Of a stretch of DNA of 64,000 bases, positions 1-24,270 are shown in pieces (position 1 is the stretch's first letter; each line of letters starts with the position of its first letter). The notes under the pieces were generated by a model. The model had not been told where the DNA came from and did not search any database. It worked only from the letters and a program-made list of their open reading frames with translations. The stretch lies in the sequence record PX393109.1. One strand, 5' to 3'. The DNA is from a phage. The translations under genes were made by a program, and so were the position numbers.

Positions 1-756
1 CTCGACGAGCTGAACGAATACAATCACTGGAAATACGGTCTGAAGTACAACATCCTGTTCTACTTCTTCCTGCAGAAAACCGACACTCCGTCTGATAACT
101 GGAAGCCGAATACTCTGTATGCGGTGATCGGTAACGGTAAGGTGGCTAACGCACTGACCGACTTCATTACGGCGCTGGCGGAAGACTCTCCGGAAGTTCT
201 GGAAGGTATGCTGGATAAAGACATCAAAGGCTCTCCGGTTAAGATTACCGTAGTACGTGGTAATCAGGGTTCTGTAACCTTCACTCCGCTGTTCAGCAAA
301 GCTGATCCGGTAGTTGCAGATCAGACCTACCAGCCGCTGGCTCAGGCGTACATCCGTGAAGGCTTCGACAAAGACAAATACGTAGGTCTGGTCAAGCGTG
401 TCCGTAAAGATCTGGACGAAATTCGTTCCCAGCGTAAGGCTAAAGGTCTGCCGCTGGTTGGCGAAGATGGCTTCGAAGAGCTTAAAGCTGAAGAAGAGGC
501 TAAGGCCGAAGAATCTAAGGAAGAGTCCGGTGATCAGAAAGCCGACGACAAATCTGACGCTAAGTCTGATGTTAAGTCCGACGCGAGCTCTGCCGAAGAT
601 AAGTCTGAAGATAAAGGCGAGTCTAAAGAAGACGCTGCTGACGACAAATCTGACGCCAAATCTGAAGATAAAACTGAAGATGCCGGCGACGATAAGTCTG
701 ACGAAGACAAAGAAGAAGGTGGTGCTGCCTCTCGCTTCGCCAAATTCCGTAAATAA
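1..756 (+). CDS. hypothetical protein, 5' partial (continues upstream of window); Lys/Ser/Asp/Glu-rich low-complexity C-terminal tail; possible ssDNA-binding/accessory protein
   Basis: Open frame from window edge to TAA at 754-756; C-terminal KSDAKSD-type repeats; followed by hairpin terminator. Function is inference only. Confidence 0.5.
   Translation, partial: LDELNEYNHWKYGLKYNILFYFFLQKTDTPSDNWKPNTLYAVIGNGKVANALTDFITALAEDSPEVLEGMLDKDIKGSPVKITVVRGNQGSVTFTPLFSKADPVVADQTYQPLAQAYIREGFDKDKYVGLVKRVRKDLDEIRSQRKAKGLPLVGEDGFEELKAEEEAKAEESKEESGDQKADDKSDAKSDVKSDASSAEDKSEDKGESKEDAADDKSDAKSEDKTEDAGDDKSDEDKEEGGAASRFAKFRK
532..714 (+). repeat. imperfect tandem coding repeat (AAR-TCT-GAC type units encoding K-S-D/E-D-K)
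   Basis: Repeated gacgacaaatctgacgc / aagtctga units visible in sequence; gives rise to spurious alternative-frame ORFs 398..760(+) and 534..743(-). Confidence 0.6.
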
Positions 757-812: not shown

Positions 813-1670
813 ATGAATGATATACCGTTAATACCAGTCGATTGTCAGTGGTTGACGCTTCGTAACTGGTTCGCAGCCGGTAAGTCTCAGGATTTAGGTC
901 CTACAGTCGCCTCTACTATCGGTAGTGTAGCGAAGTTGATTAAGGAAGACGGATATAGCTCCGAACTAATCATGCTGTACGATCGGGGTAAGTGGCGATA
1001 CAGACCTAAGGATAAGAATCCAGAGTATAAGGCCAATCGTGAGTACGACGAGAGTTTCGAAGCATTGTGGGCTGCTATGAATGTTCTTCACGAGCAGATC
1101 TTCCCGTCGCTGGGTATTAAATGTATCCAGGTGTCTGGTGTGGAAGCCGATGATTTAGGCTACTACTATGCTCATTCTGGTCGTCCGGTCATGTTACACT
1201 CACGAGACCGAGACTGGTACTTATCCATTAATGAGAATACTTGTGTCCTGAATCCGGATGATGGTTTAGTAGATCTTCCCTGGTTGATGAAGACCTACGA
1301 TCTGGATGATCATAAGGATTACCTCATCTACAAAGCCATCGTCGGGGACGGCTCCGACAACATTCCAGGAGTGGCTACTGGCTTGAAGACTGTTAAGGAA
1401 GCGATTAACGCTTACAAAGATGGTTCGCTAAGCCAATCGGTAGAGTTCCGTGTTCGTTCCAATATGGAGCTAATGCGACTCGACAGGATTCTGACTGATA
1501 CCGAAGTCCACAACATCATTAAGGAGCAGGAGTCTAAGGTACAGATGCAACAGCGTATCTTACCGACTCTGGAAGAGTTCTGTCCAGGTCACAGATTTCC
1601 TCCGTATTTCCATGGTGTACTGGGTAAGTACAACAGATGCGTTACGGCTAAGATACTGGAGTCGGCATGA
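813..1670 (+). CDS. 5'-3' exonuclease / flap endonuclease (FEN family)
   Basis: H3TH-type motif IVGDGSDNIPGV and acidic metal-binding clusters typical of T5 D15/T4 RNase H/Pol I 5' nuclease domain. Confidence 0.8.
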   Translation: MNDIPLIPVDCQWLTLRNWFAAGKSQDLGPTVASTIGSVAKLIKEDGYSSELIMLYDRGKWRYRPKDKNPEYKANREYDESFEALWAAMNVLHEQIFPSLGIKCIQVSGVEADDLGYYYAHSGRPVMLHSRDRDWYLSINENTCVLNPDDGLVDLPWLMKTYDLDDHKDYLIYKAIVGDGSDNIPGVATGLKTVKEAINAYKDGSLSQSVEFRVRSNMELMRLDRILTDTEVHNIIKEQESKVQMQQRILPTLEEFCPGHRFPPYFHGVLGKYNRCVTAKILESA

Positions 1671-4432
1671 AAATGTTAATTGCTGCTGATATTCATATTC
1701 ATGAGTTTCAGCAACATAACTCGGAAGGGTTTCGGCTAAAGCAGTTTATCAGATTGGCTCATCGTATGGTGGAGATGGGTAAGGAACATAAAGTTACTTG
1801 CCTATCTATCGCTGGCGACTTGGTGCATAAGGCTCAGCACGAGCCTAAGATTGCACATGCTACTTCCCAGTTTATGGACATCCTCGGTGAGCAGTTCTCC
1901 GAGATTTACTACATTCTGGGTAACCACGACATTAACTCCAAATCGGTAGATGCTGATCACTATCAGAACTCGCTGGTGCCGATCCTGGCTGGTAAGGCGG
2001 AGTATGTCGATGGTAAGATCCTGAACTTAGGTGGCCGTAAGGTCGCCTTCAGCGACTGGCGTCCGACTCAGGACTTTAGCTTCATCCAGGATAAAGTAGA
2101 TGTCCTAATCGGCCATATTACCCTGTCCTCGATGTTCGGTCAGGAGTTCGACGATACTAAGTACGATCTGGGATTTGCGGGTGACATCCACCGTCCTATC
2201 AGCATCGGTCATACTCACTCGGTGAACGTGCCTATTCCTCATGGGATGGGTGATAGTCAGGAAGGCAGTCTGGTACTGCTGGATCTCAAAGATCTTTCCT
2301 GGCAGCGGGTTCCGGTAGAGTCTGATTCCTTTAAGTACTTAAAGATGTACTGGGAAGATGAGGTTCCTGTCGGATTGGACAATTACCCACATCTGGTAGT
2401 TCGTGAACGAGCTCAGATGATGGATGCTTCACGCATCTCGGTTAAGTCTATTGATGTCGAAGAAGTTATCGATAAAGTCGTTCGGGCTAAAGGTCTTAAA
2501 GATATCCATGATGAGATGTCTACCCACGTTGATCGTTCCGAGTCGGTATTCGACCTCAACTTTACCTTAAATAGCATTAAGGTAGAGAACTTCCGTAGCA
2601 TCGATAAGTTGGAGCTGGACTTTAAGAAAGGTCTGACTTATCTCTACGGCGAAACCGGTAATGGTAAATCCTCGCTGTTACGAGCTCTGAACTACTGCTT
2701 AACTGGTAGCGACAGTCCTCGTAACGTGGTGAGACTCGGTCAGGACCATCTTCTGGTAGAAGTGATGCTGGAGTATGGTGGTCGTGAATTCCTGATCAGT
2801 CGCCATTGGGCTGGTGGTCAGACGTTCCGAGTCTGGATTGATGGCGATGAGATGGATGGCGGAAGTATTCGTGAGCGTGAAGCTAAGCTCTGGGAGATGC
2901 TGCCATTCCTCGAACACTTCGATCTTCTGTACCGCTCCCAGAACAGTCCTCCGTTCCTTAGCCAGTTCGGATTCAACGAGCGTATCAACCTGATAACGAA
3001 GATGCTTGGTCTTACCGTAATTAACCAGTACGAAGCTGTCGCAAAGGCCTCGGCTAAGAACTGTAAGGTAGAGATCGGTAATCTCCAGACTCAGGTTACT
3101 GCTCAGGAAGAAGTCCTTAAGACGATGGAGGATCACGATTTCTCCAGACTCAAGGACGTAAGTGATCTGGAAGAGGCTAAATCCCGAATCCTTCCTCAGA
3201 TTGATGATATTCGTCAGAAGATCCGGGAGCTGGGTAATTTGGATAGTAAGCTACAGAGTCTTCAGATGTTGGAAGACTCGCTGGCTGCGTTCAATATAGA
3301 CTTTAGCGAAGAAGAGGTTAACTCCGCACTCGCTAATGTCCGTGGCGAAATTACTCTGCTAGATGCCGAAGTGTCGGAAGTAGAAGGGAATATTCGTTCG
3401 CTCCATAACCAGAGCGAATCTCTAACTAAGGAGTTGACTCGTCTGGAACAGGAGTTGACTAAGTTAGAGACAGAAATGCGGAATATTCCCACTACCTGTC
3501 CTACCTGTAAACAGTCTCTTAAGGAAGAGGACATTAAGCAGGTACAGAGCTCTATCAGAAGTAAGATGGATGAGCTCGAGACACAGGGATCTGTATCTGT
3601 GTCTAAGTTGGATGCTGTGGAAGCTGAGATAAGTAAGGCTCCTAAGTCTGATGAAATCCGACAGAAGCTGGCTCTTAAGAATAACGAATTAGTCGAACTC
3701 CGTCGTAAGTCCGGTCTGCTAAACGATGTGGCCACTCTTCGCCAGAAGATTCATACCGTCAATAGCGATGTGGAAGTGCTTAAGAATAAGACTAAGTCCT
3801 ATTCCTCCGTGCAAGTTCTGGAAGAGGAAGTCGCTAAGCTGGAACAAGAGCTTATCGAGATTAACTCCACTATCGGAGCTATGGCTACTCTTCGTAGTCT
3901 TAAGTCTCGTATGGACGATGCTCAGACGAAGCTGGATAAGGCTAACTCTGAGCTGGCTACTCTTCAGCCTAAGTATCAGAAGCTGGTGGAGTATCAGAAT
4001 CTGTTCACTAATAGCGGTGACGTAACTGCTTCTATCTTTAAGGAAGTGGCTGCGATGATGACTGGTGGTGATATGGTCATCTCTACCGTTCGTGAACAGG
4101 CTAATGGAAATATCAAGATTGACTTTGATGTTCAATACAAAGTCGGTGAGTTCCTGATTCCGTATTCTGATCTCTCTGGTGGTCAGCAGAACCTGGTGGA
4201 CGTACTGTTCATCGGTAAGCTGATTAGCCTTAGTAAAGGTGCTGGATGCCTGATTCTGGATGAGTCGTTGAAGAATCTGGATGTGAATACTCTGGACATA
4301 GCTATCGATGCTCTCCAGGACATTCCGGTTAATCACATCATCCTGGTTACTCATGTACCTACGTTCCAGAGATATAATACTAAAATCGGTGCCTACCTTT
4401 CCAATAACGTAACTACGTTTATGGAAGAGTAG
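1667..4432 (+). CDS. fused SbcD(Mre11)-like nuclease / SbcC(Rad50)-like ATPase
   Basis: N-term calcineurin-like phosphoesterase motifs (ADIHIHE, GDLVH, GNHD); then Walker A GETGNGKSS, coiled-coil region with CPTC zinc-hook-like motif, signature LSGGQQ and Walker B LILDE at C-term. Confidence 0.75.
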   Translation: MKMLIAADIHIHEFQQHNSEGFRLKQFIRLAHRMVEMGKEHKVTCLSIAGDLVHKAQHEPKIAHATSQFMDILGEQFSEIYYILGNHDINSKSVDADHYQNSLVPILAGKAEYVDGKILNLGGRKVAFSDWRPTQDFSFIQDKVDVLIGHITLSSMFGQEFDDTKYDLGFAGDIHRPISIGHTHSVNVPIPHGMGDSQEGSLVLLDLKDLSWQRVPVESDSFKYLKMYWEDEVPVGLDNYPHLVVRERAQMMDASRISVKSIDVEEVIDKVVRAKGLKDIHDEMSTHVDRSESVFDLNFTLNSIKVENFRSIDKLELDFKKGLTYLYGETGNGKSSLLRALNYCLTGSDSPRNVVRLGQDHLLVEVMLEYGGREFLISRHWAGGQTFRVWIDGDEMDGGSIREREAKLWEMLPFLEHFDLLYRSQNSPPFLSQFGFNERINLITKMLGLTVINQYEAVAKASAKNCKVEIGNLQTQVTAQEEVLKTMEDHDFSRLKDVSDLEEAKSRILPQIDDIRQKIRELGNLDSKLQSLQMLEDSLAAFNIDFSEEEVNSALANVRGEITLLDAEVSEVEGNIRSLHNQSESLTKELTRLEQELTKLETEMRNIPTTCPTCKQSLKEEDIKQVQSSIRSKMDELETQGSVSVSKLDAVEAEISKAPKSDEIRQKLALKNNELVELRRKSGLLNDVATLRQKIHTVNSDVEVLKNKTKSYSSVQVLEEEVAKLEQELIEINSTIGAMATLRSLKSRMDDAQTKLDKANSELATLQPKYQKLVEYQNLFTNSGDVTASIFKEVAAMMTGGDMVISTVREQANGNIKIDFDVQYKVGEFLIPYSDLSGGQQNLVDVLFIGKLISLSKGAGCLILDESLKNLDVNTLDIAIDALQDIPVNHIILVTHVPTFQRYNTKIGAYLSNNVTTFMEE

Positions 4433-4436
4433 TTAG

Positions 4437-4462
4437 ATGGGGTCTTCGGACCCCATTTTTGT
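4437..4462 (+). terminator. rho-independent terminator (GGGGTC-TTCG-GACCCC + T-run)
   Basis: Hairpin plus atttttg directly after stop of 1667..4432. Confidence 0.7.
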
Positions 4463-4470
4463 GTAGATTA

Positions 4471-4560
4471 TTTTATTTTTCAAATAATGAAAAATAAAAC
4501 GATTTATGAGCCGTCTTTAAGCCCGTTCTTTTGGGTGGCGGGGCGTTCCCGCTGCGGCTC
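4471..4560 (+). promoter_or_regulatory. class B conserved intergenic element (TTTTTCAAATAA...AAAGCCCGTTCTTTTGGGTGGGGCG + GC-rich segment)
   Basis: One of 6 near-identical elements; upstream of small gene 4581..4823 with leader TAATTTGGGATAAAATC-ATG. Confidence 0.55.
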
Positions 4561-4580
4561 TTCTAATTTGGGATAAAATC

Positions 4581-4823
4581 ATGGCTATAATCAAAAGTTC
4601 ACGTGGTGGTGCTGTTCTGGTTGCAATCGCTAACTCTGCTGAAATTCAGCACACCCCAGGCCTCGATACAAAGTTCAATGTTCACTTCTCTAGCCAAATC
4701 GGTGGTTATGACTCCAGCTTCAATACCCTGTTCGAAGCGGTTATGGAATGCGCTAAGTTTTCCTGCAAATTTGATGCAGAAGAAGTGGCCGAGTTCCTGA
4801 AAGTCACAGGGGAAGCTGCATAA
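4581..4823 (+). CDS. hypothetical small protein (80 aa)
   Basis: ATG preceded by class B element and GGGAT SD-like leader. Confidence 0.5.
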   Translation: MAIIKSSRGGAVLVAIANSAEIQHTPGLDTKFNVHFSSQIGGYDSSFNTLFEAVMECAKFSCKFDAEEVAEFLKVTGEAA

Positions 4824-5086
4824 TGGTTAAGCTTCTCGAAGTCACTAAATTCAATACGGTGGTGGTTATGTCGGTAAACCTGAAATGCGCCATTGTATAT
4901 TACCCTAACCAGGATCAGTACGAAGTGGTTAAGGAGCCCATGAAGGAAGCTCGTGTGGTTATGTCGACCGAATCTGGTCGCTTCGCCAGGGAAATGGCTA
5001 AGGAGTTGGACTCCTTCTTTAATGGAACTCTGGATGAGTTCTTTGAGCTGTCTGGTTGGTACGCTCTTCCAGAACCGCTCCTTTGA
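4823..5086 (+). CDS. hypothetical protein (87 aa)
   Basis: ORF with ATGG overlap to upstream stop; class A motif overlaps its 3' end. Confidence 0.45.
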   Translation: MVKLLEVTKFNTVVVMSVNLKCAIVYYPNQDQYEVVKEPMKEARVVMSTESGRFAREMAKELDSFFNGTLDEFFELSGWYALPEPLL

Positions 5087-5110
5087 GCCCTCCAAAGGCT
5101 GTTAAACTGT
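5075..5110 (+). promoter_or_regulatory. class A conserved promoter-like motif (CCGCTCTTT-N~9-AAAGGCTGTTAA-RNTGT), copy 1
   Basis: Motif recurs 16 times, always + strand and 25-90 nt upstream of a start codon. Confidence 0.6.
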
Positions 5111-10235: not shown

Positions 10236-11618
10236 ATGTCAGATTCAAAGGTAGTTACCTGGGGGACGGTGCTAGTAACGGTGGGTATCATACTCGCCAT
10301 TATGTTAGCTCCCACCCAGTTTGGTGCTGTAATGGACTGGAGTAAGTCTGTATTCATATCTCAGTATGGATTCATATTTACCTGGTCTTCGCTGATCTTC
10401 CTAGCGTTCCTGGCATTCTTTGTATTCAGCAAGCATGGTAACATTAAGCTGGGTAAAGGTGCTCCGAAATATAATCGCTTTACCTATTACTCCATGATGT
10501 TTAGTACCGGTATGGGTGTATCCATGATTTATTATGGTGTACTCGAACCTATGTACCATCAGCAGGAGGGTATGTCCGAACGTCAGAATATGGTAACTAC
10601 CTTCTTTGACTGGGGACTTAACGCATGGGCAGTTTATGCAGTCGTAGGGGTGGCATTCGGGTACTTACTGCATGTACGTGGTGAAGACCGTCCGCTTAAT
10701 CAGTTATTCAAGTCCCGAGCTCTGAATAACCTTAATACGATAAGCTTACTCTTCTCTACCATCATAGGCTTAACCCTGTCGTTCGTCTACGCAGTAGGCC
10801 CGATCAGTTCCGGATTTAAAGAGTTCCTGGGAGTGGATGTTGGTCCTTACACCATTATCGCGCTCCTGACTCTGGGTACTGTACTTAGTGCCGTAACTGG
10901 TGTCGATCGTGGGGTTAAGTGGTTATCCAGATATAATGTAATCGTAGCTCTATCTATTATGGCATTCGTTGCTGTAAGTGGTACATTCTTCGAATACCTC
11001 TGGAAGACCATCACCTATTCTGGTAGCTATCTGCTCCAGATTATTCCTATGTCAGTAAACATCGGCAGTACTGCTGAAGAGAAGCAATGGCTGGCTAGCT
11101 GGCCTTATGCTTACTATGCAGCCTGGGTAGGTTGGGCATTATTCGTCGGAGCGTTTGTGGCACGTATCTCTTACGGCCGTACTATTCGCGAACTGATCCT
11201 CGGATGTGTACTGTTCCCTACCATCATCAGTAACGTCTGGTTTACCGTATTCGGTGTAGCTGGTCTACAACATGGTGCTCAGGATATCTTCCAGCTTCTG
11301 GCTAATTTCCCAGGCGGATGGATATTCTCGGTAATTACCCTCGTGTCTGTGATCCTGTTCTTTATTACAGGTCATGACTCAGCAGGTATTACGGTAGAGT
11401 CCATGACCGCTCCTAGAACTCGTGTATTCTGGATTGTAAGCATGGGTGTAGTTGCTGCTGCACTTAACTGGGCAGGTGGCGACGTAGTAACTGTAACGAA
11501 GACTCTGGTAGCTGTATCGGCTGTTCCGGTACTGATTGGGGTATTGTGTATTCTATTCGGGTTCCTCAAGATCTTTGTACCTAAAGTATTCTTGGCTAAG
11601 GAAACTCCGCCTGTTTGA
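10236..11618 (+). CDS. BCCT-family transporter (betaine/carnitine/choline transporter-like)
   Basis: Multi-TM protein with Trp-rich BCCT signature region AWVGWALFVGAFVARISYGRTIRELILG, as I recall it from BetT/CaiT/OpuD. Confidence 0.7.
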   Translation: MSDSKVVTWGTVLVTVGIILAIMLAPTQFGAVMDWSKSVFISQYGFIFTWSSLIFLAFLAFFVFSKHGNIKLGKGAPKYNRFTYYSMMFSTGMGVSMIYYGVLEPMYHQQEGMSERQNMVTTFFDWGLNAWAVYAVVGVAFGYLLHVRGEDRPLNQLFKSRALNNLNTISLLFSTIIGLTLSFVYAVGPISSGFKEFLGVDVGPYTIIALLTLGTVLSAVTGVDRGVKWLSRYNVIVALSIMAFVAVSGTFFEYLWKTITYSGSYLLQIIPMSVNIGSTAEEKQWLASWPYAYYAAWVGWALFVGAFVARISYGRTIRELILGCVLFPTIISNVWFTVFGVAGLQHGAQDIFQLLANFPGGWIFSVITLVSVILFFITGHDSAGITVESMTAPRTRVFWIVSMGVVAAALNWAGGDVVTVTKTLVAVSAVPVLIGVLCILFGFLKIFVPKVFLAKETPPV

Positions 11619-11704: not shown

Positions 11705-12316
11705 ATGAAGTCACGACTGATTATCAGCCCACATCACGATGATGAGATTCTGGGTTGCGGAGGTATTATGAGCAAATTCCGCGATGACCAATTCTTCATC
11801 CTCGAAGTAACTGCTCCGGACGAGACCCGTCGTGGCGAAGCCGAAGCAGCATTCGGTGTCTATCCGAATATCAAAGAAGTACATTGCCTGGAGCGTAACG
11901 ATGCCTCCACAGGCGATGGTATGACTCAGAAGGATATTCCGCAATTGGCTAAGGATATTGCGGACTATGTTGCTAAAATCAGGCCGGATGTAGTCTATAT
12001 TCCGTTCAGTAGCCTACACCAGGACCATCAACTAGTTAATCATGCTGCTCGTGTAGCTCTCCGAGCGTATAACTGGCTTATCCTGGAATATGAGTATGCC
12101 GAGTCCCTGACCCAGTTCGGTCAGATGGAACCTAATTACTTCGAGCGTCTGAATAAGGACGATATTGAGTGTAAGTGCCAGGCTATGGGACGATTCGACT
12201 CCCAGATTAAGTCAGACCGAGATACCCAGAGTATCTTAGCCCTAGCCACCTTACGTGGATATTCCGCCCAGTGGCCGTACGCCGAAGGGTTTCGCTTAGT
12301 TCGTCAAATTGGATAA
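11705..12316 (+). CDS. PIG-L/LmbE-family deacetylase (N-acetyl-sugar deacetylase-like)
   Basis: N-terminal ISPHHDDEILGCGG and HQDH motifs characteristic of the zinc-dependent LmbE/PIG-L fold. Confidence 0.65.
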   Translation: MKSRLIISPHHDDEILGCGGIMSKFRDDQFFILEVTAPDETRRGEAEAAFGVYPNIKEVHCLERNDASTGDGMTQKDIPQLAKDIADYVAKIRPDVVYIPFSSLHQDHQLVNHAARVALRAYNWLILEYEYAESLTQFGQMEPNYFERLNKDDIECKCQAMGRFDSQIKSDRDTQSILALATLRGYSAQWPYAEGFRLVRQIG

Positions 12317-12322
12317 ATAATT

Positions 12323-13357
12323 ATGACCACCAAAGTAGCTTTTATCATCCCAACCTATCATCGTCTGAAGTCGGTACTCCGTCAGATTCAGTCGTTCAAA
12401 GATGCTAAAAAGACTGACGACTCTATTGAGTATCGCTTCTTCTACTTTATTCAGGATGCCTCCGAAGAAGATAAGGCAATTCTGGAAGAGCAGTTTGGTG
12501 GGGATGAGCAATTTAATTTCTGTCATAGCCCTAAGTACGAAAATCCGGTAATCGGAGAAATCCGTGCCCATGCTCTGGATAAAGCATGGATTGTAATGGA
12601 GAAGCAGGACTGGTGCCCAGACATCTGCTACTTCGTGGATGATGATGTCTGGTTCGCCGACGATATCTTCCATCTGGATCGGTCCATTATCGACTTCGAG
12701 GGATCTGAGTTTGAGATGGCGTTCGTCCGTAGCTTCAAGAACCGTAACTACAAGATTGTTGAACTCTGCGATCGTCAGTCCCATAATAACACTGCTCCGG
12801 CTACTGACCTGGGTATTATGGTCAAGACTAGCGAGAAGATGTTCTGGCTGTTCGATAAGACCTTCCAGCAACTCACTGTAGGTGAGGATTGCTACCTGTT
12901 GTTTAAAGGTATGGCGATGGGATGGAAAGTGGGCCAGGTAACCGGTACTGGTAGCTCGTTCTACTGGGATGAGAACTGGTTAATGGACACCTCTTCTAAT
13001 GGCGGTGGTATTCACGAAGTCACCGTAGCTAAGCTAGGCTACTCTCCGAAAGATATGGTAACTCGTAATGAGCTGCTTAGCCGTCCAGATAAGTCCTACG
13101 TACAGTGGCATTGTGCAGATATGTTCCACTATGACTCTGCAGATAGCTCGTTCCGTCGTATTCGTCCCAACATCCAGGAATACTTGAAAGAGTATTGTAC
13201 GGCTACCGAAGATGCAATTATCCGAGCTCCTGGTGCTGGGGTAATGAAGTTCGATGGAACTAACCGTACGGTATTCGGATTAAACAAAGACTATTCCTAC
13301 TTAACTGATCTCAATGATAAGTGGCTGAGTTGGGCATCAGCTAATTCGCTTCTTTGA
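12323..13357 (+). CDS. GT-A fold glycosyltransferase (family 2-like)
   Basis: N-terminal AFIIPTYHR and DXD-type YFVDDD motifs. Confidence 0.5.
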   Translation: MTTKVAFIIPTYHRLKSVLRQIQSFKDAKKTDDSIEYRFFYFIQDASEEDKAILEEQFGGDEQFNFCHSPKYENPVIGEIRAHALDKAWIVMEKQDWCPDICYFVDDDVWFADDIFHLDRSIIDFEGSEFEMAFVRSFKNRNYKIVELCDRQSHNNTAPATDLGIMVKTSEKMFWLFDKTFQQLTVGEDCYLLFKGMAMGWKVGQVTGTGSSFYWDENWLMDTSSNGGGIHEVTVAKLGYSPKDMVTRNELLSRPDKSYVQWHCADMFHYDSADSSFRRIRPNIQEYLKEYCTATEDAIIRAPGAGVMKFDGTNRTVFGLNKDYSYLTDLNDKWLSWASANSLL

Positions 13358-13382
13358 TGAGCTAAAAGGCTGTTACATTGTG
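13346..13382 (+). promoter_or_regulatory. class A conserved promoter-like motif, copy 5 (core embedded in hairpin GGCTGT..ACAGCC)
   Basis: TCGCTTCTTTGATGAGCTAAAAGGCTGTTACATTGTG. Confidence 0.55.
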
Positions 13383-13404
13383 ACAGCCTACGGAGAAATT
13401 AAAT

Positions 13405-14484
13405 ATGAAAATTGCAGTAACTAACTTTTCGCCATGCAGCGATAAATCCATCATCGCCAGTAACACTCTGGCATCCTGGTTAGCCTACGGACTTCAGGCG
13501 GACTTGCTGGATGATACTCCTAAGTTTGTTAAGGCTATGGAAGATGGCACCAAATATGACGTGATCATCGCCGTCAATGGTGTTCCTACCTTCTGTAAGT
13601 TCCGCGATGAGATGTATAAATTCTGGGTAGACCAGGCGGACCTCGGAGCTAAGTTTTACTGGATTGGTCAAGATTATTCATCACGTATGCGTATCCAGGG
13701 TCCGCAGTGGCGACACATCACAGCAGCTACGACATTTAAAGTAGTAGCAGCATTCGAGCGTACTTCCTGGGGTAATCAGTACTCCCCTAGCGAAGAGAAC
13801 TATCACCACATTAACTGGAACCGTCTTACCTACGTTCCTGGTCGTAAGCCTCGCTACGGCTCATCTGATAAACCAGACAATAGCCTGCTGTATTACGGTG
13901 CTGCTCGTGAAGGTCGCTTCCATAAGTTCACTCAGTACTTCTCCCAGCAGGATGGTCTGGAACTGTTTATGTCGGTGCCTAGCTACAAAGCTCAGATGTC
14001 TATCGCTAAACATACTGGTGGTCTTGCTGGATTTGACGGCTACGAGCAGGAAAACTGGGAAGAGCTGGATCCTAAAGAACGTAAGTGGCTGGGGCCTGCT
14101 GCTCCTATTAACTGGCTGCCTAAGTTTAAGCTGTCAGAGATGCTGGATGAAGTGGCTAAATACGCAGCGGTACTGCTTATTGAAGACTGGAACTCTAGTA
14201 ACTCGTTCTATACCAGCCCACCTAACCGTTATTATGAATACCTGAGCTCTGGTACTCTGATGTTGGTGGATAAAGATGCTGCCGGAACAATAATCCGGAG
14301 CGGCGTCCCCGAAGAGCTGCTGGCTCCTCTGATCGTCTCCAGTAATGCGGAGATTGCAGAGAAACTGAAAGATCGTGATGCTCTGCTGAAACATCAGTAT
14401 GAGAATCTGTATCTGCGCAAGGATTACGCACAAGAACTTCAGGATGAAGTAATCGACTACTTTACCAAAGAAGGTATTCTTTAA
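13405..14484 (+). CDS. DNA beta-glucosyltransferase-like protein (T4 BGT-like, GT-B fold)
   Basis: Several colinear blocks resemble T4 beta-glucosyltransferase as I recall it (MKIAVTNFS vs MKIAIINMG; YDVIIAVNG; YYGAAREGRFHK vs YGGSFRSGQRE; RYYEYLSSGTLMLVD vs RVWETMASDAVMLID). Recall-based, needs alignment. Confidence 0.5.
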   Translation: MKIAVTNFSPCSDKSIIASNTLASWLAYGLQADLLDDTPKFVKAMEDGTKYDVIIAVNGVPTFCKFRDEMYKFWVDQADLGAKFYWIGQDYSSRMRIQGPQWRHITAATTFKVVAAFERTSWGNQYSPSEENYHHINWNRLTYVPGRKPRYGSSDKPDNSLLYYGAAREGRFHKFTQYFSQQDGLELFMSVPSYKAQMSIAKHTGGLAGFDGYEQENWEELDPKERKWLGPAAPINWLPKFKLSEMLDEVAKYAAVLLIEDWNSSNSFYTSPPNRYYEYLSSGTLMLVDKDAAGTIIRSGVPEELLAPLIVSSNAEIAEKLKDRDALLKHQYENLYLRKDYAQELQDEVIDYFTKEGIL

Positions 14485-15455
14485 TGTCAACACCGTTAGG
14501 TCTGCATTACGAAGGACTCCTTGGGATGATAAATCCTGAGGAGTTACGGGAGTATGTGGAGTATAACCGTGAACGTACAGAGGTTTATTATAAGAAGGAG
14601 GTGCTTAAGCTGCCTCCTCCGTGGACGGAACATAAGTGGATTAGTAAGTTCAAATTCACTAACGTGTTCCGTAAGCACGATCGTGAAACAGTGTGGGCTA
14701 TTAAGAACATTCTGGAGAACGATTCTTTAAGCTGGGAGAGTAAAGCACTTAATGTAGTACTCTTCCAGATGATAAACCGTGGTGATTCATATATGGATCG
14801 CTTCCGCAGAGTCCTTCCTCTTTATGAGATGAGCTATGACGACATACATAACATGGGTCGCGAAGAGCTACGTCGTTATGAGGATGGTCCTCCGTTCACC
14901 GCTCCACAGCAATCAAATGCCTACTTCCTTAGCACAGCAGTTAAGATGGCTAATGAAGTATGTCCAGAGGATATTAAGTACAGTGTAGCTGCCAGAGCCT
15001 ATCTGGTGAAGACCTACAGTGATCCTATCTTATGGGCATGGAAGTCTCCGTTCGCTACCGAGGCTATCGAGCATCTGTTACAGGTATCTGGATTAGGTCC
15101 GTTCATGGCATATCAATGCTGGGCAACTATGTCCTACTCTAAAGAGACTGCGTATACAGATAATGACGCTATCGTATGTGGACCTGGGACTCAGGATGGG
15201 GTATGGTACATGATTAATGACCAGAATCCTCCCTGTGGTTATCAGGTATTCGTGGAATGGTGGTATCAGAACATCAAAGAGATATGTGCACATTTCGGGT
15301 ATTCATGGGAACCGGAGAAATGGTTCCACTTCATGCCAGAGGATGAGCGATTCTATACTCGCCAGATGTTCACCAACTCATTCTGCGAATTCTCGAAACT
15401 ACATAAACTGAATCACGAGATCCGTATGAGACCTCGCTGGTATAAGTTTAGCTAG
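14484..15455 (+). CDS. hypothetical protein (323 aa), member of putative modification cluster
   Basis: ORF translationally coupled (TAATG) to upstream gene; no confident domain. Confidence 0.5.
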   Translation: MSTPLGLHYEGLLGMINPEELREYVEYNRERTEVYYKKEVLKLPPPWTEHKWISKFKFTNVFRKHDRETVWAIKNILENDSLSWESKALNVVLFQMINRGDSYMDRFRRVLPLYEMSYDDIHNMGREELRRYEDGPPFTAPQQSNAYFLSTAVKMANEVCPEDIKYSVAARAYLVKTYSDPILWAWKSPFATEAIEHLLQVSGLGPFMAYQCWATMSYSKETAYTDNDAIVCGPGTQDGVWYMINDQNPPCGYQVFVEWWYQNIKEICAHFGYSWEPEKWFHFMPEDERFYTRQMFTNSFCEFSKLHKLNHEIRMRPRWYKFS

Positions 15456-15481
15456 TTCACATTTACACCAGCCTTTTTAGT

Positions 15482-15517
15482 CCGCTCTTTTAGGGTCTTG
15501 AAAGGCTGTTAAAATGT
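15482..15517 (+). promoter_or_regulatory. class A conserved promoter-like motif, copy 6
   Basis: CCGCTCTTTTAGGGTCTTGAAAGGCTGTTAAAATGT. Confidence 0.6.
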
Positions 15518-15544
15518 GGGAAAGATTCTTAATTGGAGAGAATA

Positions 15545-16267
15545 ATGAGAGACTATAGTATCCCAGGCTACAGTGTAATTATGTCTGGTGCGCAGGGTAC
15601 CGGTAAATCTACCCTGGCTAAAGGTTGGGAAGAATCAACCGAATGTACCTTCCGTGCAGTACAGACTCGTGACCATCTTCCTCTGGGAGTAACATCCCAT
15701 ATGGATATTCTGCGCTTAGCTGTAGAAGATCCTATGGAAGCGGTAGAGTTCCAGCTGCGTCTTATTCGTCAGCGAACTCAGATGTTCAAGGATGCCTACA
15801 ATCGTGGCGAGTTGATCGTCAGTGATCGTGCGGTATTCGATTCGTACGTTTACTTCCTGCTGCATAACAGTATGTTTGCCAGCCAGGAAGCTCGTGATGA
15901 GGCATTACGTCTCAGTAACGAGTCTATTGATTATTATAACATGACTCTGTTCTTCAATACGAAGGATAAGAGTATTGAGGACAATAACTTCCGTGTTGTT
16001 GATCCTGAATACTCTGTAGCAGTCAGTTCTACTCTCCTTAAGGTAACTATGCGTGCCTACGAGGAGCGATTCGGTGCTGCGTTGTGTAATTCTGTAACTC
16101 TGAATCATCCGGTGTATCCTGGATCAATCACAGCTCGTTTTACTAATACTGGTAAAGGTATTATGATCCTGAACGAGCCATCTGGTATGATCCCTCAGGA
16201 GGCCCGTCTGGAGTTACTGTCCTCTGCAGTTAAGTCTATTGATTCAGTGCGTAAGGACTCTAAATGA
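15545..16267 (+). CDS. P-loop nucleotide/deoxynucleotide kinase (dNMP kinase-like)
   Basis: Walker A MSGAQGTGKST near N-terminus, DR..FDSYVY lid-like region; size and layout resemble dNMP/dNK kinases. Start at ATG 15545 (track start is TTG). Confidence 0.55.
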   Translation: MRDYSIPGYSVIMSGAQGTGKSTLAKGWEESTECTFRAVQTRDHLPLGVTSHMDILRLAVEDPMEAVEFQLRLIRQRTQMFKDAYNRGELIVSDRAVFDSYVYFLLHNSMFASQEARDEALRLSNESIDYYNMTLFFNTKDKSIEDNNFRVVDPEYSVAVSSTLLKVTMRAYEERFGAALCNSVTLNHPVYPGSITARFTNTGKGIMILNEPSGMIPQEARLELLSSAVKSIDSVRKDSK

Positions 16268-17337
16268 TCTCGGTAATTCGCGGTAACAGTAATACTGAAA
16301 TCCTGGTTAACAGCATCAATACTATGGATAAGGCTGGTGAGTTGCAGAAGTCCAGAACTTCTGTTAACTCTTCGGCGGTAGTATCCATCGGTCATGCTGT
16401 AGTTGAGTTAAGTAATCCGATTAATCGTTGGATGGCTCATCCAGAACGTAAAGACAATATCCTCGGAATTATGGGGGAAGTATTGTGGGTACTGTCTGGT
16501 GGCTATGCAATCGATAACTGGATGTCGATTATGGTTCCTCGCGCTAAGATGTTTAGCGATGATATGGTTACCTGGCGTGGTGCTTACGGTGAGCGTCTGT
16601 ATAACTACGATCAACTCCAGACTGTAACAGACCGCCTCCGTTCTGACCTGGGTAACCGTAAGTGCGTGGCTACTATTCACGATCCCAGCCGTGATTCTGA
16701 TGTAGGTCTGGTAAACAGCATTGGCAGCATCAATACCGCAGATATGATCTGCAACATTGCTCTATCGTTTAAGTACCGTAATGGTGGTCTGGACTGCACG
16801 GTATTCAACCGTAGTAATGATCTAATCTGGGGATTGACTAACGTTAATCTGGTGGAGTTCACGATCATCCAGGAAATCATCGCAACTATGCTCAAAGTAG
16901 ATATGGGCAACTATGTGGTGATGACGGATGATCTCCACTGGTATCCGGAAGTGTCGAACATCAAGAAGCAGGTAAGTAATATCCGAGCTTATGTTGACGA
17001 CATTAATGAAGCTCCGGTAACTACGATTGATCTCGGATCACTTAATTCCTGGTATAAGATCCGTACCTACTTCCAGCATTACATCGCTACTCTTGAAGAT
17101 GCTGCTTCTCGTTATAATAGCGATCACAGTATTCTAGAATACGTAATGGAAGATGTTGGTCGAGAGTTCCAACCAGGATCAACTCTGGATGTGATGATGT
17201 GGTTAGCAGGCGCTCATTATCTATGTAAGACTACTGGAGCTCACATGTCTATCCAGTGCGAGCATCTGGTTAATTCACCATTCGTGAAATGGGTCGCGAA
17301 CCGCCTCGGGGATAAGTCTCCGTTTATTCTGGAATAA
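16264..17337 (+). CDS. thymidylate synthase / deoxypyrimidylate hydroxymethylase superfamily enzyme (ThyA-gp42 fold)
   Basis: Colinear ThyA-family motifs: EVLWVLSGG, WRGAYGERLY, DQLQ..RKCVATIHDP, catalytic-Cys region MICNIAL, NRSNDLIWGL, DDLHWY. The RSND and C-x-N features resemble T4 dCMP hydroxymethylase more than canonical ThyA. Confidence 0.7.
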   Translation: MISVIRGNSNTEILVNSINTMDKAGELQKSRTSVNSSAVVSIGHAVVELSNPINRWMAHPERKDNILGIMGEVLWVLSGGYAIDNWMSIMVPRAKMFSDDMVTWRGAYGERLYNYDQLQTVTDRLRSDLGNRKCVATIHDPSRDSDVGLVNSIGSINTADMICNIALSFKYRNGGLDCTVFNRSNDLIWGLTNVNLVEFTIIQEIIATMLKVDMGNYVVMTDDLHWYPEVSNIKKQVSNIRAYVDDINEAPVTTIDLGSLNSWYKIRTYFQHYIATLEDAASRYNSDHSILEYVMEDVGREFQPGSTLDVMMWLAGAHYLCKTTGAHMSIQCEHLVNSPFVKWVANRLGDKSPFILE

Positions 17338-20957: not shown

Positions 20958-20982
20958 CGGAGGTTTATTTTTGGAGTTAAAC

Positions 20983-23900
20983 ATGTTTCTGAATCACAAT
21001 TTAGTTGGCGAAGTAGACTATGTCATTATCGGGGACGAGCGCGAGAATAATGATGCTCCTCCGTTTGCTGCATCGAATGCTGGCCAAACTCTTGATGTAG
21101 CGCTAATTACAGCTGGGGTACATAACAAAGTTGGTCTGATAGAGATCAACAGAGATGGTACTTTCGAAGAGCTGTCTAACATAGACGAAATCCGTGATAA
21201 GGATGGTCTCAACTTTTACGAGCTGTGTGAAAAGCATGGCGTTAAGCATGTAATGACTTTGGGTCGCCAATTAGCTGCGACTATATCCCCAGGCTATACG
21301 CATAAGAAGACTCTGGATAAGCTACTGAAGTTCCCTCTGGGTAACATACCGGAGTATAACTTTAAGCTAGCTGTAGTCATGCACCATGCCCAGGTTGAAC
21401 GTAATCTGGATTCTGATCCTGGTATACTTGATTCGTGGATTGATCGTTTTAAGTTTCTGGTATTCGGCCAGAAAGAATCCGAATATAATGTAGAGTGGGA
21501 ATTCGTCGACTGGAACGGCCTCCAGGAGTTCCTTAACGACATTATGTGGTCTGGGTACAAAGGCTATCTCGGCCTCGACTATGAGTCTAACGCAGCTGAT
21601 TTATTCTCGGTAGACTTCCGGATCACTGGATTCAGTATCGCTAAGAAGATTGGTGATAAGGATGCCAAGTCCGTATGGTACAATGTTACCGGTAAAGAGA
21701 CTCCGGAACAGCTAGGATTCTTGCGTGACTTCCTGGTTAAGTTCCAGGAGCAGATCGTGGCGTTTAACTGTCCGTACGAGATTAAGACTACGTGGCATTG
21801 GTTAGACGTATTCTGCAAGTTTATCGATGCGATTGTAACTCTGACTATGCATGGCGAACGGAGCTCGTTGAAAGATGCTGCTCGTCGTTATTTACATGCA
21901 GACTTCTGGGAAGGGTCGGTACACGAATGGAAGGATCGTTGGGCAGCTATCTTCAAGGATATGAAGAAGCGTTGTACTCCTGAGCAGATTGCAGAGATTC
22001 AGTCTGGCGAGTTCAATATTGAGCATCACCTAGCTCTTAAAGCTGAGTACGAGAAACTCGTGGAAGCGGCTCCGACTAAGGCGGCTAAGAATCGTATTCC
22101 TGTTAACTTCAACCAGTTTATGCTGGATAAGATAGCCGAACTATCGGAGGAGCTCGAAGAATCCGAGATTATTTACTTGGCATCGTTCTACCCATATGAG
22201 TGGGGTGCGATTCCTCGTGAGATTCTTGGGGAGTACTGCTGCTATGACTCCGCGTACGGTGTGTTCATCCACGAGATGTTTTACGATAAGTATAAGGATG
22301 GGTATAACGTATATATGTTACATCCATACCTGGCATCTATCTTCGAAGCTAACGGTATTCGTTGGGATGACGAAGAGGCGACTAAAGAGTACGACTATTG
22401 CATGAGCAAAATGTCGGAGCACTTGGTTAGCCTAATCCCTAACCTTAAGTTACCTCCTGACCAGATGCTTACAGCTCGCGACTTTATCTATCGAGAGTTG
22501 CCGTACGAGAACGTATGGTACACTCCTGGTGGACAAGAGCGCCGTAAGATGGTTACTACTCTGGCTGGGAAGATTGCTGATCTGTCAGGATTCTTCAACC
22601 CTAACAGTAACGATAAGGCTAATAAGGAGAAGTTCTGGAAAGCCTATCTTACTGATGAAGTAGAGATGTGTACCATGCTATGGTCTGTAATGGACCAGCT
22701 TAAGGTGCATGACTACTGGGATAAAACCCTGCTGGCGATCTCTAAGGGGTTCGTGCCTAAGGATTCGGAGAAGCTGGAGAGGGAATTCTTCCGGGAGTTT
22801 CCGGTAGATGAGATCTTAACCAGGATCATCCAATTCGGGGATACTGCTGAGTCTAAGCATGTTCGGGAGTTAATTGCCATGTGCGTCCAGGACGGTCTGG
22901 AAGCTTATGAAGAGCGATTCACGAATAAGTTTAAAGCGGATGTTCTCGATGCCCAATTGGCTATTCACCAGTTGATGTTGGGAGTTAATCCGGATGACGA
23001 GTCTACCTGGAATACATCGTTCCGTATGATGGTTGACCTGAAGATGTATAAGCGTCACTACAAACAGATTGCTACATACATTGATGGTAAGGTAGGACGC
23101 CAGACGGTATGGGCAGCTAAACTACGTGATGGTTTACCTCCGCTGCGAGTTCGTAAGTACGACTGGGATAATCCGAAGTTGCAGGATGGTGAAGATTGCT
23201 ACATCATGACTCCGGACTTTAACTCGTTGGCTGCGATTACATCTCGTTGGCAGGCAGGTATTCATAACGTTCCTGGCGACAGTACTCTGCGTAACATCTG
23301 GGTATCTAAGCCGGAGGGTGGCCTGTGGTACCACCAGGACTTTAGCCAGGCTGAGCTGGTGATGGTTAGCGTGTTCGCCGATGACTCGGATATGAAGAAC
23401 GTATTCTTATCTGGTGGCGACATGCACCGATTCGTTAGCTCGATTGCATACCAGAAGTCTGAACCTGAAGTAACTGATGTTGAGCGTAAGGGTGGTAAGG
23501 CGATTAACTTCGCATTAGTATACCAGTCTAGCCTTGAATCGGTAGCGATGGTTGCTACTGGTGGTGATATGGAGCGTGCTCAGAATCTGATGGACACGGT
23601 ATTCGGTAAGTTTACCGGTCTTAAGGCATGGATTGATGCTACCAAGAAAAATGGCTTCGAGACTGGGTATGCTTATGGTTACTTCGGTAACCGTATCAAC
23701 CTGGAAGGTACCAACGTTAACTCTACTTCGGTGAACTATCCTATCCAGAATACTTCGTCGATGGTTGCTGGCGCAGGTATGTACTTCCTGGATGAGGACT
23801 TTAAGCAGTCCAATATGGAGGCCGAGACTCACATCATGGTCCACGACTCCTTGGATACCACATCCGGAATCAACGAGATGTTCAAGGTGTTCCAGAAGAC

Positions 23901-24270
23901 TCGTGAGAATATGGAGGGGGCTATTCGTGAACTCTGGGATATGCCTATGCGCACTGATATCGAATTCGGTGCTCGGGGCGGTTCCTTGATGGGTCTGGAT
24001 GACTATGGAGTTAACGAAGATGGTTCCGGATGGCTGATCGTTGAGGGTCGTGAGTCTGCATTGGAGAAACTACTGGAAGCTCTCGATCAGTATAGCCAGT
24101 GGACTCCATACGTAGAGATCCTTAAGGAGAAGGAGAAGTTAAACTCTATAGCTAACAGCTTCAACTCCAAATCCGGTATTCGTTCCGACGGTACAGGCTG
24201 GGGATGTAAGTATATCGAGCTTAAGGCTAAAATAACTCTGGAGCCTAAACATGGCGAGAAAGCAGCGTAA
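20983..24270 (+). CDS. family A DNA polymerase (Pol I-like) with N-terminal extension
   Basis: Motif A DFSQAELVMVS, motif B KGGKAINFALVYQ, motif C VHDSLD; N-terminal region has DEDD-like exonuclease motif LGLDYES. Start at ATG 20983 (track start is TTG). Confidence 0.8.
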   Translation: MFLNHNLVGEVDYVIIGDERENNDAPPFAASNAGQTLDVALITAGVHNKVGLIEINRDGTFEELSNIDEIRDKDGLNFYELCEKHGVKHVMTLGRQLAATISPGYTHKKTLDKLLKFPLGNIPEYNFKLAVVMHHAQVERNLDSDPGILDSWIDRFKFLVFGQKESEYNVEWEFVDWNGLQEFLNDIMWSGYKGYLGLDYESNAADLFSVDFRITGFSIAKKIGDKDAKSVWYNVTGKETPEQLGFLRDFLVKFQEQIVAFNCPYEIKTTWHWLDVFCKFIDAIVTLTMHGERSSLKDAARRYLHADFWEGSVHEWKDRWAAIFKDMKKRCTPEQIAEIQSGEFNIEHHLALKAEYEKLVEAAPTKAAKNRIPVNFNQFMLDKIAELSEELEESEIIYLASFYPYEWGAIPREILGEYCCYDSAYGVFIHEMFYDKYKDGYNVYMLHPYLASIFEANGIRWDDEEATKEYDYCMSKMSEHLVSLIPNLKLPPDQMLTARDFIYRELPYENVWYTPGGQERRKMVTTLAGKIADLSGFFNPNSNDKANKEKFWKAYLTDEVEMCTMLWSVMDQLKVHDYWDKTLLAISKGFVPKDSEKLEREFFREFPVDEILTRIIQFGDTAESKHVRELIAMCVQDGLEAYEERFTNKFKADVLDAQLAIHQLMLGVNPDDESTWNTSFRMMVDLKMYKRHYKQIATYIDGKVGRQTVWAAKLRDGLPPLRVRKYDWDNPKLQDGEDCYIMTPDFNSLAAITSRWQAGIHNVPGDSTLRNIWVSKPEGGLWYHQDFSQAELVMVSVFADDSDMKNVFLSGGDMHRFVSSIAYQKSEPEVTDVERKGGKAINFALVYQSSLESVAMVATGGDMERAQNLMDTVFGKFTGLKAWIDATKKNGFETGYAYGYFGNRINLEGTNVNSTSVNYPIQNTSSMVAGAGMYFLDEDFKQSNMEAETHIMVHDSLDTTSGINEMFKVFQKTRENMEGAIRELWDMPMRTDIEFGARGGSLMGLDDYGVNEDGSGWLIVEGRESALEKLLEALDQYSQWTPYVEILKEKEKLNSIANSFNSKSGIRSDGTGWGCKYIELKAKITLEPKHGEKAA

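Follow-up and report, generated by a model that had tools for sequence, protein, structure and literature searches.

In the 64,000-nucleotide stretch of phage DNA analyzed here (sequence record PX393109.1, referred to as the window), the gene at 1667..4432 on the plus strand encodes an Mre11/SbcD-type nuclease and a Rad50/SbcC-type ATPase in one polypeptide. We estimate with a probability of roughly 0.8 that the product is a functional single-chain Mre11-Rad50 (SbcDC-type) enzyme of a lytic, thymidine-hypermodified myovirus, working as a homodimeric, ATP-driven nuclease of DNA ends. The case starts from direct observations on the open reading frame (ORF), the identities of its domains, the conservation of their motifs, purifying selection, synteny and the presence of a single copy. 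The frame is uninterrupted and runs from the ATG at 1667 to the TAG at 4430-4432 (921 codons plus the TAG). A 921-amino-acid fusion of SbcD/Mre11 with SbcC/Rad50 had been proposed in an initial annotation made from the DNA letters alone, and both halves of that proposal were supported independently by profile searches and fold matches. The protein is a genuine yet ordinary member of a class of fusions described in 2011, and its probable function is conventional.

The N-terminal part of the protein matched Pfam Metallophos (1.5e-8) and carries the phosphoesterase motifs I (D8-x-H10), II (G50-D51), III (G85-N-H87-D88), IV (H150) and V (G172-D173-I-H175). The initial annotation had assigned these motifs to the first ~270 residues; they were all present, but they end at residue 175 and the nuclease fold ends at about residue 245, residues 246-299 being a linker plus a helix-loop-helix (HLH) rather than nuclease. 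When an N-domain profile (22 sequences, residues 1-295) was searched against PDB sequences, the only matches below 1e-3 were SbcD, Mre11 and the Mre11-like nuclease MPE, with E. coli SbcD at 7.6e-9 and Mre11 at ~1e-7. The AlphaFold (AF2) model of the nuclease half had a predicted local distance difference test score (pLDDT) of 89, and 50/50 of its top PDB fold matches were Mre11/SbcD, the best of them (6s85_A, 6.9e-11) being the SbcD of the E. coli SbcCD head complex. Conservation was measured in a 101-sequence alignment of the family with a mean column identity of 21%. H87, H150, G172 and H175 were invariant, D8, H10, G50, D51, G85, D88 and D173 were conserved in at least 95% of the sequences, and the residues expected to act as metal ligands (D8, H10, D51, H87, D88, H150 and H175) were 96-100% conserved, which is far beyond chance at that mean identity. 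Judged by sequence and by model, residues 1-245 are predicted to have the Mre11/SbcD fold and to lie nearer to Mre11/SbcD than to other metallophosphoesterases.

The remaining residues, 300-921, matched Pfam AAA_23 (5.8e-14) and SMC_N (1.9e-11), so that domain prediction, one of the checks proposed in the initial annotation, agreed with the fusion in both halves; Rad50_zn_hook was matched at 2.5e-4, under its gathering score. In PHROG, the SbcC-like family 77 was matched (8e-50, 171 bits). A family profile of the ATPase matched archaeal Rad50 (2.8e-35), E. coli SbcC (6.7e-29), SMC3 (3.7e-27) and LmuB (1.7e-12) in the PDB, and the alignments with PDB Rad50 sequences span both halves of the ATPase head. 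The top Foldseek match of the full-length AF2 model (pLDDT 80) was the Rad50 of the C. thermophilum MRN complex (9e-17), so structure prediction also agreed with the proposed fusion, with Mre11/SbcD matches for the nuclease half and Rad50 as best match of the whole chain. The Walker A, CPTC hook-like, LSGGQ signature and Walker B motifs had been listed correctly in the initial annotation, and their key residues are strongly conserved among the 101 homologues: K334, C611, C614, S837 and D865 were found in 101, E866 in 100, G839 in 99 and Q840 in 97, with H896 in 89 and D872 in 75. C611-P-T-C614 aligns with the CPxCG of stand-alone phage SbcC and of gp46 and is a predicted zinc hook. These similarities argue that residues 300-921 are a Rad50/SbcC-type ATPase, nearer to Rad50/SbcC than to other SMC-like ATPases.

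The two arms of the coiled coil are ~156 and ~159 residues long in the AF2 prediction. The initial annotation had regarded so short a coiled coil as atypical, and this did not hold. The fusion ATPase profile aligned with the stand-alone 639-amino-acid SbcC-like protein of the Twort-like Staphylococcus phage 184DA from end to end, hook included (profile positions 4-615 of 617, 162 bits), and because of this end-to-end alignment the coiled-coil length and the head can be considered equivalent in the two proteins. The T4-type gp46 (560 amino acids) is shorter still than the ATPase half of the fusion. As far as these alignments indicate, the coiled coil is short only relative to cellular Rad50/SbcC and is ordinary for phages. 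Phage 184DA differs in having separate genes with a 125-amino-acid ORF between them, and its SbcD-like protein was not detected by the N-domain profile of the fusion family.

The junction between the two domains (residues 246-299) consists of a predicted disordered linker, the HLH and a short tether. The HLH helices (residues 264-274 and 278-285) were predicted in both the full-length and the nuclease-half models, and within the HLH, L277 was conserved in 86/101 and H281 in 89/101 sequences. The tether measured 13-21 residues among the 101 homologues, with a median of 15, which is compatible with the criterion of Yoshida et al. (PMC3175470) based on the ~28-Å gap in the T. maritima complex. 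The modeled layout is the one expected if the Rad50-binding domain of Mre11 has been kept, and this domain presumably docks at the base of the coiled coil.

The fusion is conserved well beyond close relatives. Single-piece, full-length tblastn matches were found in phages of Acinetobacter (38%), Ralstonia (RP13; 35%), Rhizobium (29%), Vibrio (26%) and Cobetia (23%); Thermus phage phiLo was matched in two pieces and Yersinia phages at 79-92% coverage, and in total 20 records covered at least 80% of the fusion query. When 1.84 billion cluster representatives were searched exhaustively, 215 matched at E ≤ 1e-30. Both domains were present in 151 of the 163 metagenomic homologues that were retrieved, always with the nuclease first, and the median length was 931 amino acids. 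Over its first 9 kb the window shares 90% identity with phage EP_H11 and with Escherichia phage vB_EcoM_IME392 (a thymidine-hypermodifying myovirus of 116 kb, hereafter IME392). The fusion gene differs from that of IME392 by 230 synonymous and 57 nonsynonymous codon differences, and across residues 246-299 there are 11 synonymous and no nonsynonymous changes; the gene is under purifying selection, junction included.

These data bear directly on whether the long ORF is real. A frameshift or misassembly could have joined adjacent sbcD-like and sbcC-like genes; cells as well as T4-like and Twort-like phages have two separate genes for Mre11 and Rad50, likewise with the nuclease before the ATPase, and the related phage RHph_TM39 is annotated with two genes. 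We consider such an artefact to have a vanishingly small probability, because the fused ORF is conserved across distant phages and metagenomes and is under purifying selection across the junction. The continuous frame recurs in independent genomes from hosts of several phyla as well as in the 151 metagenomic proteins, the junction contains no homopolymer runs of 6 or more, and it holds a conserved HLH and a tether of constrained length. The split in RHph_TM39 is itself an assembly artefact. As a natural split version of the gene in this Rhizobium phage, it was ruled out by N gaps and a second, 81%-identical copy that had been scaffolded in. The record (MN988559.1, 87216-97217) is a partial, gapped genome, and its two-gene annotation is an assembly problem of the database entry. 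The initial annotation had also called the fusion atypical, given that Mre11 and Rad50 are usually separate polypeptides; this is true of cells and of T4, but the fused form is a published class and is frequent in viruses.

Some of the metagenomic homologues were considerably longer. P0062, P0155 and P0060 (1227-1344 amino acids) carry intein or LAGLIDADG homing-endonuclease insertions, which sit at the Walker A (P-loop) region or in the nuclease domain, and P0123 (1146 amino acids) has an extra segment without explanation. The possibility that these long proteins (1146-1344 amino acids) are long-coiled-coil forms like Mimivirus R555 was ruled out for 3/4 by the insertions. Inteins are typical of important genes, and their presence in some homologues suggests a functional enzyme. 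No other Mre11/Rad50 homologue was found with family hidden Markov models in the 64-kb window or in the complete IME392 genome, a search that a very divergent copy could escape.

The genomic setting is also conserved. A DnaB-like helicase is followed by a RusA resolvase (Pfam, 5e-7), two proteins of ~340 amino acids, a FEN-family 5'-3' exonuclease, the fusion, and topoisomerase II B and A, an order that IME392 and Acinetobacter phage Ab1-TPeters share. The metagenomic contig P0007 keeps this order as far as topoisomerase II at 31-38% protein identity and runs on into the thymidine-hypermodification genes ADDT and HMUDK, and contig P0005 keeps it up to the fusion, with no recognised topoisomerase gene in the flank read. 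The gene directly preceding the fusion is FEN in Ab1-TPeters and in both of these contigs, FEN is nearby in contig P0009 and the Rhizobium phage, and in a family member with only 23% identity the FEN and topoisomerase genes are still nearby. IME392 was grouped in 2025 with YerA41, Carin-5, RP13, phiLo and RHph_TM30 by related polymerases, within a survey of genes for synthesis of 5-hydroxymethyldeoxyuridine (5-hmdU), the thymidine-hypermodification precursor (PMC12686479).

The first account of natural Mre11/Rad50 fusions is that of Yoshida, Claverie and Ogata (Virol J 2011; PMC3175470), who reported them from Mimivirus (R555), Bacillus phage 0305phi8-36, the C. kluyveri and Deferribacter plasmids, a few bacteria and eukaryotes, and numerous metagenome reads of viral fractions. 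These authors found the fusions to be polyphyletic and considered the N-Mre11/C-Rad50 order well suited to the known complex. The present protein has every feature of this class: a single ORF in the N-Mre11/C-Rad50 order, a spacer of capping/HLH length, a short tether and the status of sole copy in a viral genome. With R555 it shares an Asp in place of the first His of motif V (100/101 in this family) and a His as the last residue of motif II, GDxxH, which is present in this protein but in only 27/101 family members. R555 is longer (1351 versus 921 amino acids), the coiled coil here being of phage length, and the present clade is a distinct, large myovirus group with hypermodified thymidine that is absent from the 2011 paper. 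Predicted structures of mimivirid "DNA repair exonucleases" align across the whole query (E about 1e-29 to 1e-26), and those of Tenacibaculum jumbo-phage and Listeria phage proteins also align over its full length. The literature searched contained no account of this fusion for the IME392/YerA41/RP13 group, and none of fused SbcCD in phages beyond the 2011 paper.

Among two-gene systems, the T4-type gp47/gp46 pair (Krischvirus Delraymugoa) resembles the fusion in its domains, nuclease-then-ATPase order, short coiled coils and CPTC hook, and the family profiles match gp47 at 56 bits and gp46 at 84 bits; by analogy, a presumed role in recombination-dependent replication would be shared as well. 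It is unlike the fusion in comprising two polypeptides with small ORFs between the genes and in the canonical motif V of gp47 (GHFH versus GDIH). E. coli SbcCD and archaeal Mre11-Rad50 (6s85, 6s6v, 3av0 and 3aux) matched both halves best, by sequence as well as by fold, and have the same catalytic motifs and the same plan of head, coiled coil and hook. They differ in their separate subunits, coiled coils about twice as long (SbcC has 1048 amino acids), full-size capping domain and canonical GHxH motif V.

The mechanism that we propose, including the oligomeric state, HLH docking, enzymatic activities and biological role, is inferred by homology with SbcCD and Mre11-Rad50. Each polypeptide would supply one nuclease and one ATPase, and two chains would form a machine equivalent to M2R2, held by three contacts: Mre11-Mre11 dimerization, ATP-driven engagement of the Rad50 heads and zinc-mediated joining of the CxxC hooks. 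The internal HLH would sit at a coiled-coil base, and because a tether of only ~15 residues connects it to the first Rad50 strand, this base probably belongs to the same chain. On the model of E. coli SbcCD and archaeal Mre11-Rad50, the head would alternate between clamping DNA and cutting it as ATP is bound and hydrolyzed, and in the cutting state a Mn-dependent nuclease would nick or trim hairpins, DNA ends and ends blocked by protein. In the phage, the enzyme most likely starts end resection, which the probably co-transcribed FEN-type exonuclease may extend in the 5'-3' direction. The resected ends would enter recombination-dependent replication and the repair of breaks, the processes that gp46/gp47 serves in T4. 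Fusion of the two activities would fix a 1:1 stoichiometry and their co-expression.

Several observations weigh against this proposal or parts of it. Motif V reads GDIH and not the canonical GHxH, and since the Asp replaces the first canonical His (in 100/101 sequences), metal binding could differ from that of known enzymes. The capping-like subdomain, ~45 residues of β-strands at about 200-246 between motif V and the linker, is far smaller than in solved Mre11 structures. The Q-loop residue Q425 is present here and in only 35/101 homologues as aligned, in a region where the alignment is possibly unreliable. The full-length AF2 model had a predicted template modeling score of 0.45, so the inter-domain arrangement is poorly determined. 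Finally, the role in recombination-dependent replication rests on the analogy with T4, because no recombinase was recognised beside the gene: searches for a UvsX-, RecA- or Sak-type recombinase or a single-stranded-DNA-binding protein (SSB) left the two conserved ~340-amino-acid neighbors without a Pfam, PHROG or PDB match.

The function could also be directed at foreign DNA. If the fusion were a modification-discriminating nuclease that degrades unmodified host or competitor DNA while hypermodified thymidines protect the phage genome, its main job would be offensive or defensive, and we regard this as quite improbable. T4 gp46/47 contributes to the breakdown of host DNA, and the window encodes a thymidine-hypermodification pathway (5-hmdU DNA kinase and a thymidylate-synthase homologue) whose genes accompany the fusion in distant relatives; the same architecture, however, is found in giant viruses and phages that are not known to hypermodify thymidine. 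The best PADLOC match was LmuB of Lamassu (3.5e-29, residues 298-903), a short-coiled-coil Rad50-like ATPase of similar size, and LmuB and Lamassu structures were among the PDB matches, but Rad50/SbcC scored higher than LmuB both with the single protein (171 versus 100 bits) and with the family profile (125 versus 50 bits). The partner domain has the predicted Mre11 fold with an HLH instead of a Lamassu effector, no LmuA- or LmuC-like neighbors are encoded, and the surroundings are a replication and recombination module of a lytic phage and not a bacterial defense locus. Lamassu membership was ruled out by the context (FEN, small ORFs and topoisomerase II as neighbors) and by the relative scores.

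A specialized partnership with the neighboring topoisomerase II, in which the fusion rids rapidly replicating DNA of covalently trapped topoisomerase or of other protein-blocked ends and does not initiate recombination-dependent replication, seems unlikely as the main role. Mre11-Rad50 and SbcCD cut protein-blocked DNA ends, and the topoisomerase II B and A genes lie just downstream of the fusion in the window, in Ab1-TPeters and in the P0007 contig, and upstream of it in the P0009 contig. Yoshida et al. had already made this suggestion for R555 (PMC3175470). A terminator-like hairpin nevertheless stands between the two loci, together with a spacer that varies, the flanks examined in Ralstonia phage RP13 and the P0005 contig contain no topoisomerase gene that is annotated or recognised by Pfam, and clustering of replication genes is generic in phages. 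Such a role is compatible with a general end nuclease, and the two are possible together. It is a long shot that the clade, with its Asp in motif V and its constant linkage to FEN, topoisomerase II and thymidine hypermodification, represents an Mre11-Rad50 adapted to bulky hypermodified thymidines that processes ends which cellular SbcCD cannot or discriminates modified phage DNA from unmodified host DNA. If true, this would tie DNA hypermodification to a dedicated break-processing machine.

Recognition of the single-chain Mre11-Rad50 has mainly consequences for annotation. The database names of close relatives are inconsistent ("hypothetical protein," "SMC family ATPase," "coil containing protein," or only SbcC-like or SbcD-like), and labeling them as single-chain Mre11-Rad50 would improve annotation in a large clade of hypermodified-DNA phages. 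Among viruses the fusion is a major variant, represented by hundreds of clusters at 50% identity, and not the sporadic curiosity that it seemed in 2011. Structural and single-molecule studies of the ATP-driven nuclease switch could also find a convenient model in a compact 921-amino-acid protein that contains the whole Mre11-Rad50 unit at a fixed 1:1 ratio. These benefits are modest in practice, and no new mechanistic question is opened.

Table 1. Features of the fusion gene, its transcription unit and the thymidine-modification genes, in window coordinates.
Feature	Position	Strand	Basis or detail
FEN-family 5'-3' exonuclease gene, 285 aa	813..1670	+	Pfam 5_3_exonuc_N 2e-12; PHROG 107 exonuclease 2.5e-25
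Shine-Dalgarno-like GGAG	1658..1661	+	5 nt ahead of ATG; read from sequence
Predicted Mre11/SbcD-type phosphodiesterase domain, residues 1-245	1667..2401	+	Pfam, profile and AF2 fold matches; motif conservation
Predicted disordered linker, residues 246-258	2402..2440	+	pLDDT below 50 in full-length model
HLH, presumed Rad50-binding domain of Mre11, residues 264-285	2456..2521	+	Helices in both models
Short tether from HLH to first Rad50 β-strand, residues 286-299	2522..2563	+	Length constraint
N-terminal half of predicted Rad50 ABC-ATPase head, residues 300-449	2564..3013	+	Pfam AAA_23, SMC_N, AAA_29; PDB Rad50 3aux 1.3e-10
Walker A, G328-ETGNGKS335	2648-2671	+	Within residues 300-449
Predicted ascending coiled-coil arm, residues 450-605	3014..3481	+	AF2 helices 450-488, 499-540, 548-605
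Predicted zinc-hook apex, residues 606-619	3482..3523	+	C611-P-T-C614 at 3497-3508
Predicted descending coiled-coil arm, residues 620-778	3524..4000	+	AF2 helices 620-657, 661-708, 715-778
C-terminal half of predicted ATPase head, residues 779-921	4001..4429	+	PDB alignments; conservation
Signature, L836-SGGQ840	4172-4186	+	
Walker B, C861-LILDE866	4247-4264	+	
D-loop, D872		+	
H-loop, H896	4352-4354	+	
Terminator-like hairpin	4435..4458	+	10-bp stem, UUCG loop, U-run; begins 3 nt past fusion stop
5-hmdU DNA kinase gene	14484..15455	+	HMUDK_hel 5e-35
Thymidylate-synthase homologue gene	16264..17337	+	

The fusion start codon overlaps the stop of the upstream FEN gene in an ATGA at 1667-1670, and because of this overlap the two genes are probably co-transcribed and translationally coupled. 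The hairpin that follows the fusion had an RNA folding energy of -15.9 kcal/mol (z = -3.6), and 0/200 shuffled sequences were equally stable; it was not listed by a consensus terminator scan. It is the probable end of the FEN-fusion transcription unit. The spacer between this point and the topoisomerase genes (window 4433..5108) varies between the window and IME392. IME392 has ~640 nt there that the window lacks, among them a coding sequence for 218 amino acids, and the window has instead two short ORFs (4581..4823 and 4823..5086), which are only 76% identical to IME392 where alignable.

The ~340-amino-acid proteins upstream of FEN occur clade-wide. In IME392 they are encoded at locus L001:2947-3987 and 4084-5094; in the window, 124..756 (+) encodes the C-terminal part of one of them, with a long acidic tail rich in Ser, Asp and Lys. 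Because of their position, they are candidates for an SSB, a recombinase or a mediator. Farther downstream, the thymidine-hypermodification cluster (11705..17337, +) encodes a PIG-L deacetylase, two proteins of ~350 amino acids, the 5-hmdU DNA kinase, an AAA_28 protein and the thymidylate-synthase homologue. A 460-amino-acid transporter of the betaine/carnitine/choline (BCCT) family lies at 10236..11618 (+; Pfam, 4e-92) and is annotated in IME392 too. A full-length membrane transporter is unusual phage cargo, and since its gene adjoins the PIG-L-family deacetylase (11705..12316) and the thymidine-modification genes, it might import a DNA-modification precursor.

The window also encodes transcription and replication proteins. 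The RNA-polymerase beta' (Rpb1) domains are split over two genes with different domains (28502..30016 and 31596..33164, +), which indicates a multisubunit phage RNA polymerase of the phiKZ/AR9 kind in a 116-kb phage. The family A DNA polymerase (20971..24270, +) has 1099 amino acids, of which the Pfam polymerase domain covers only residues 766-1001. PolA enzymes of the YerA41/phiLo type are fused to uracil-DNA glycosylase (2025 preprint, 10.1101/2025.03.26.645540), and by analogy the long N-terminal region of the family A polymerase may be such a glycosylase. A family X DNA polymerase (pol-beta thumb plus HHH_8) is encoded directly upstream of an NAD-dependent DNA ligase (39788..42569, +), and this apparent gap-filling and ligation repair pair could act downstream of the Mre11-Rad50 fusion.

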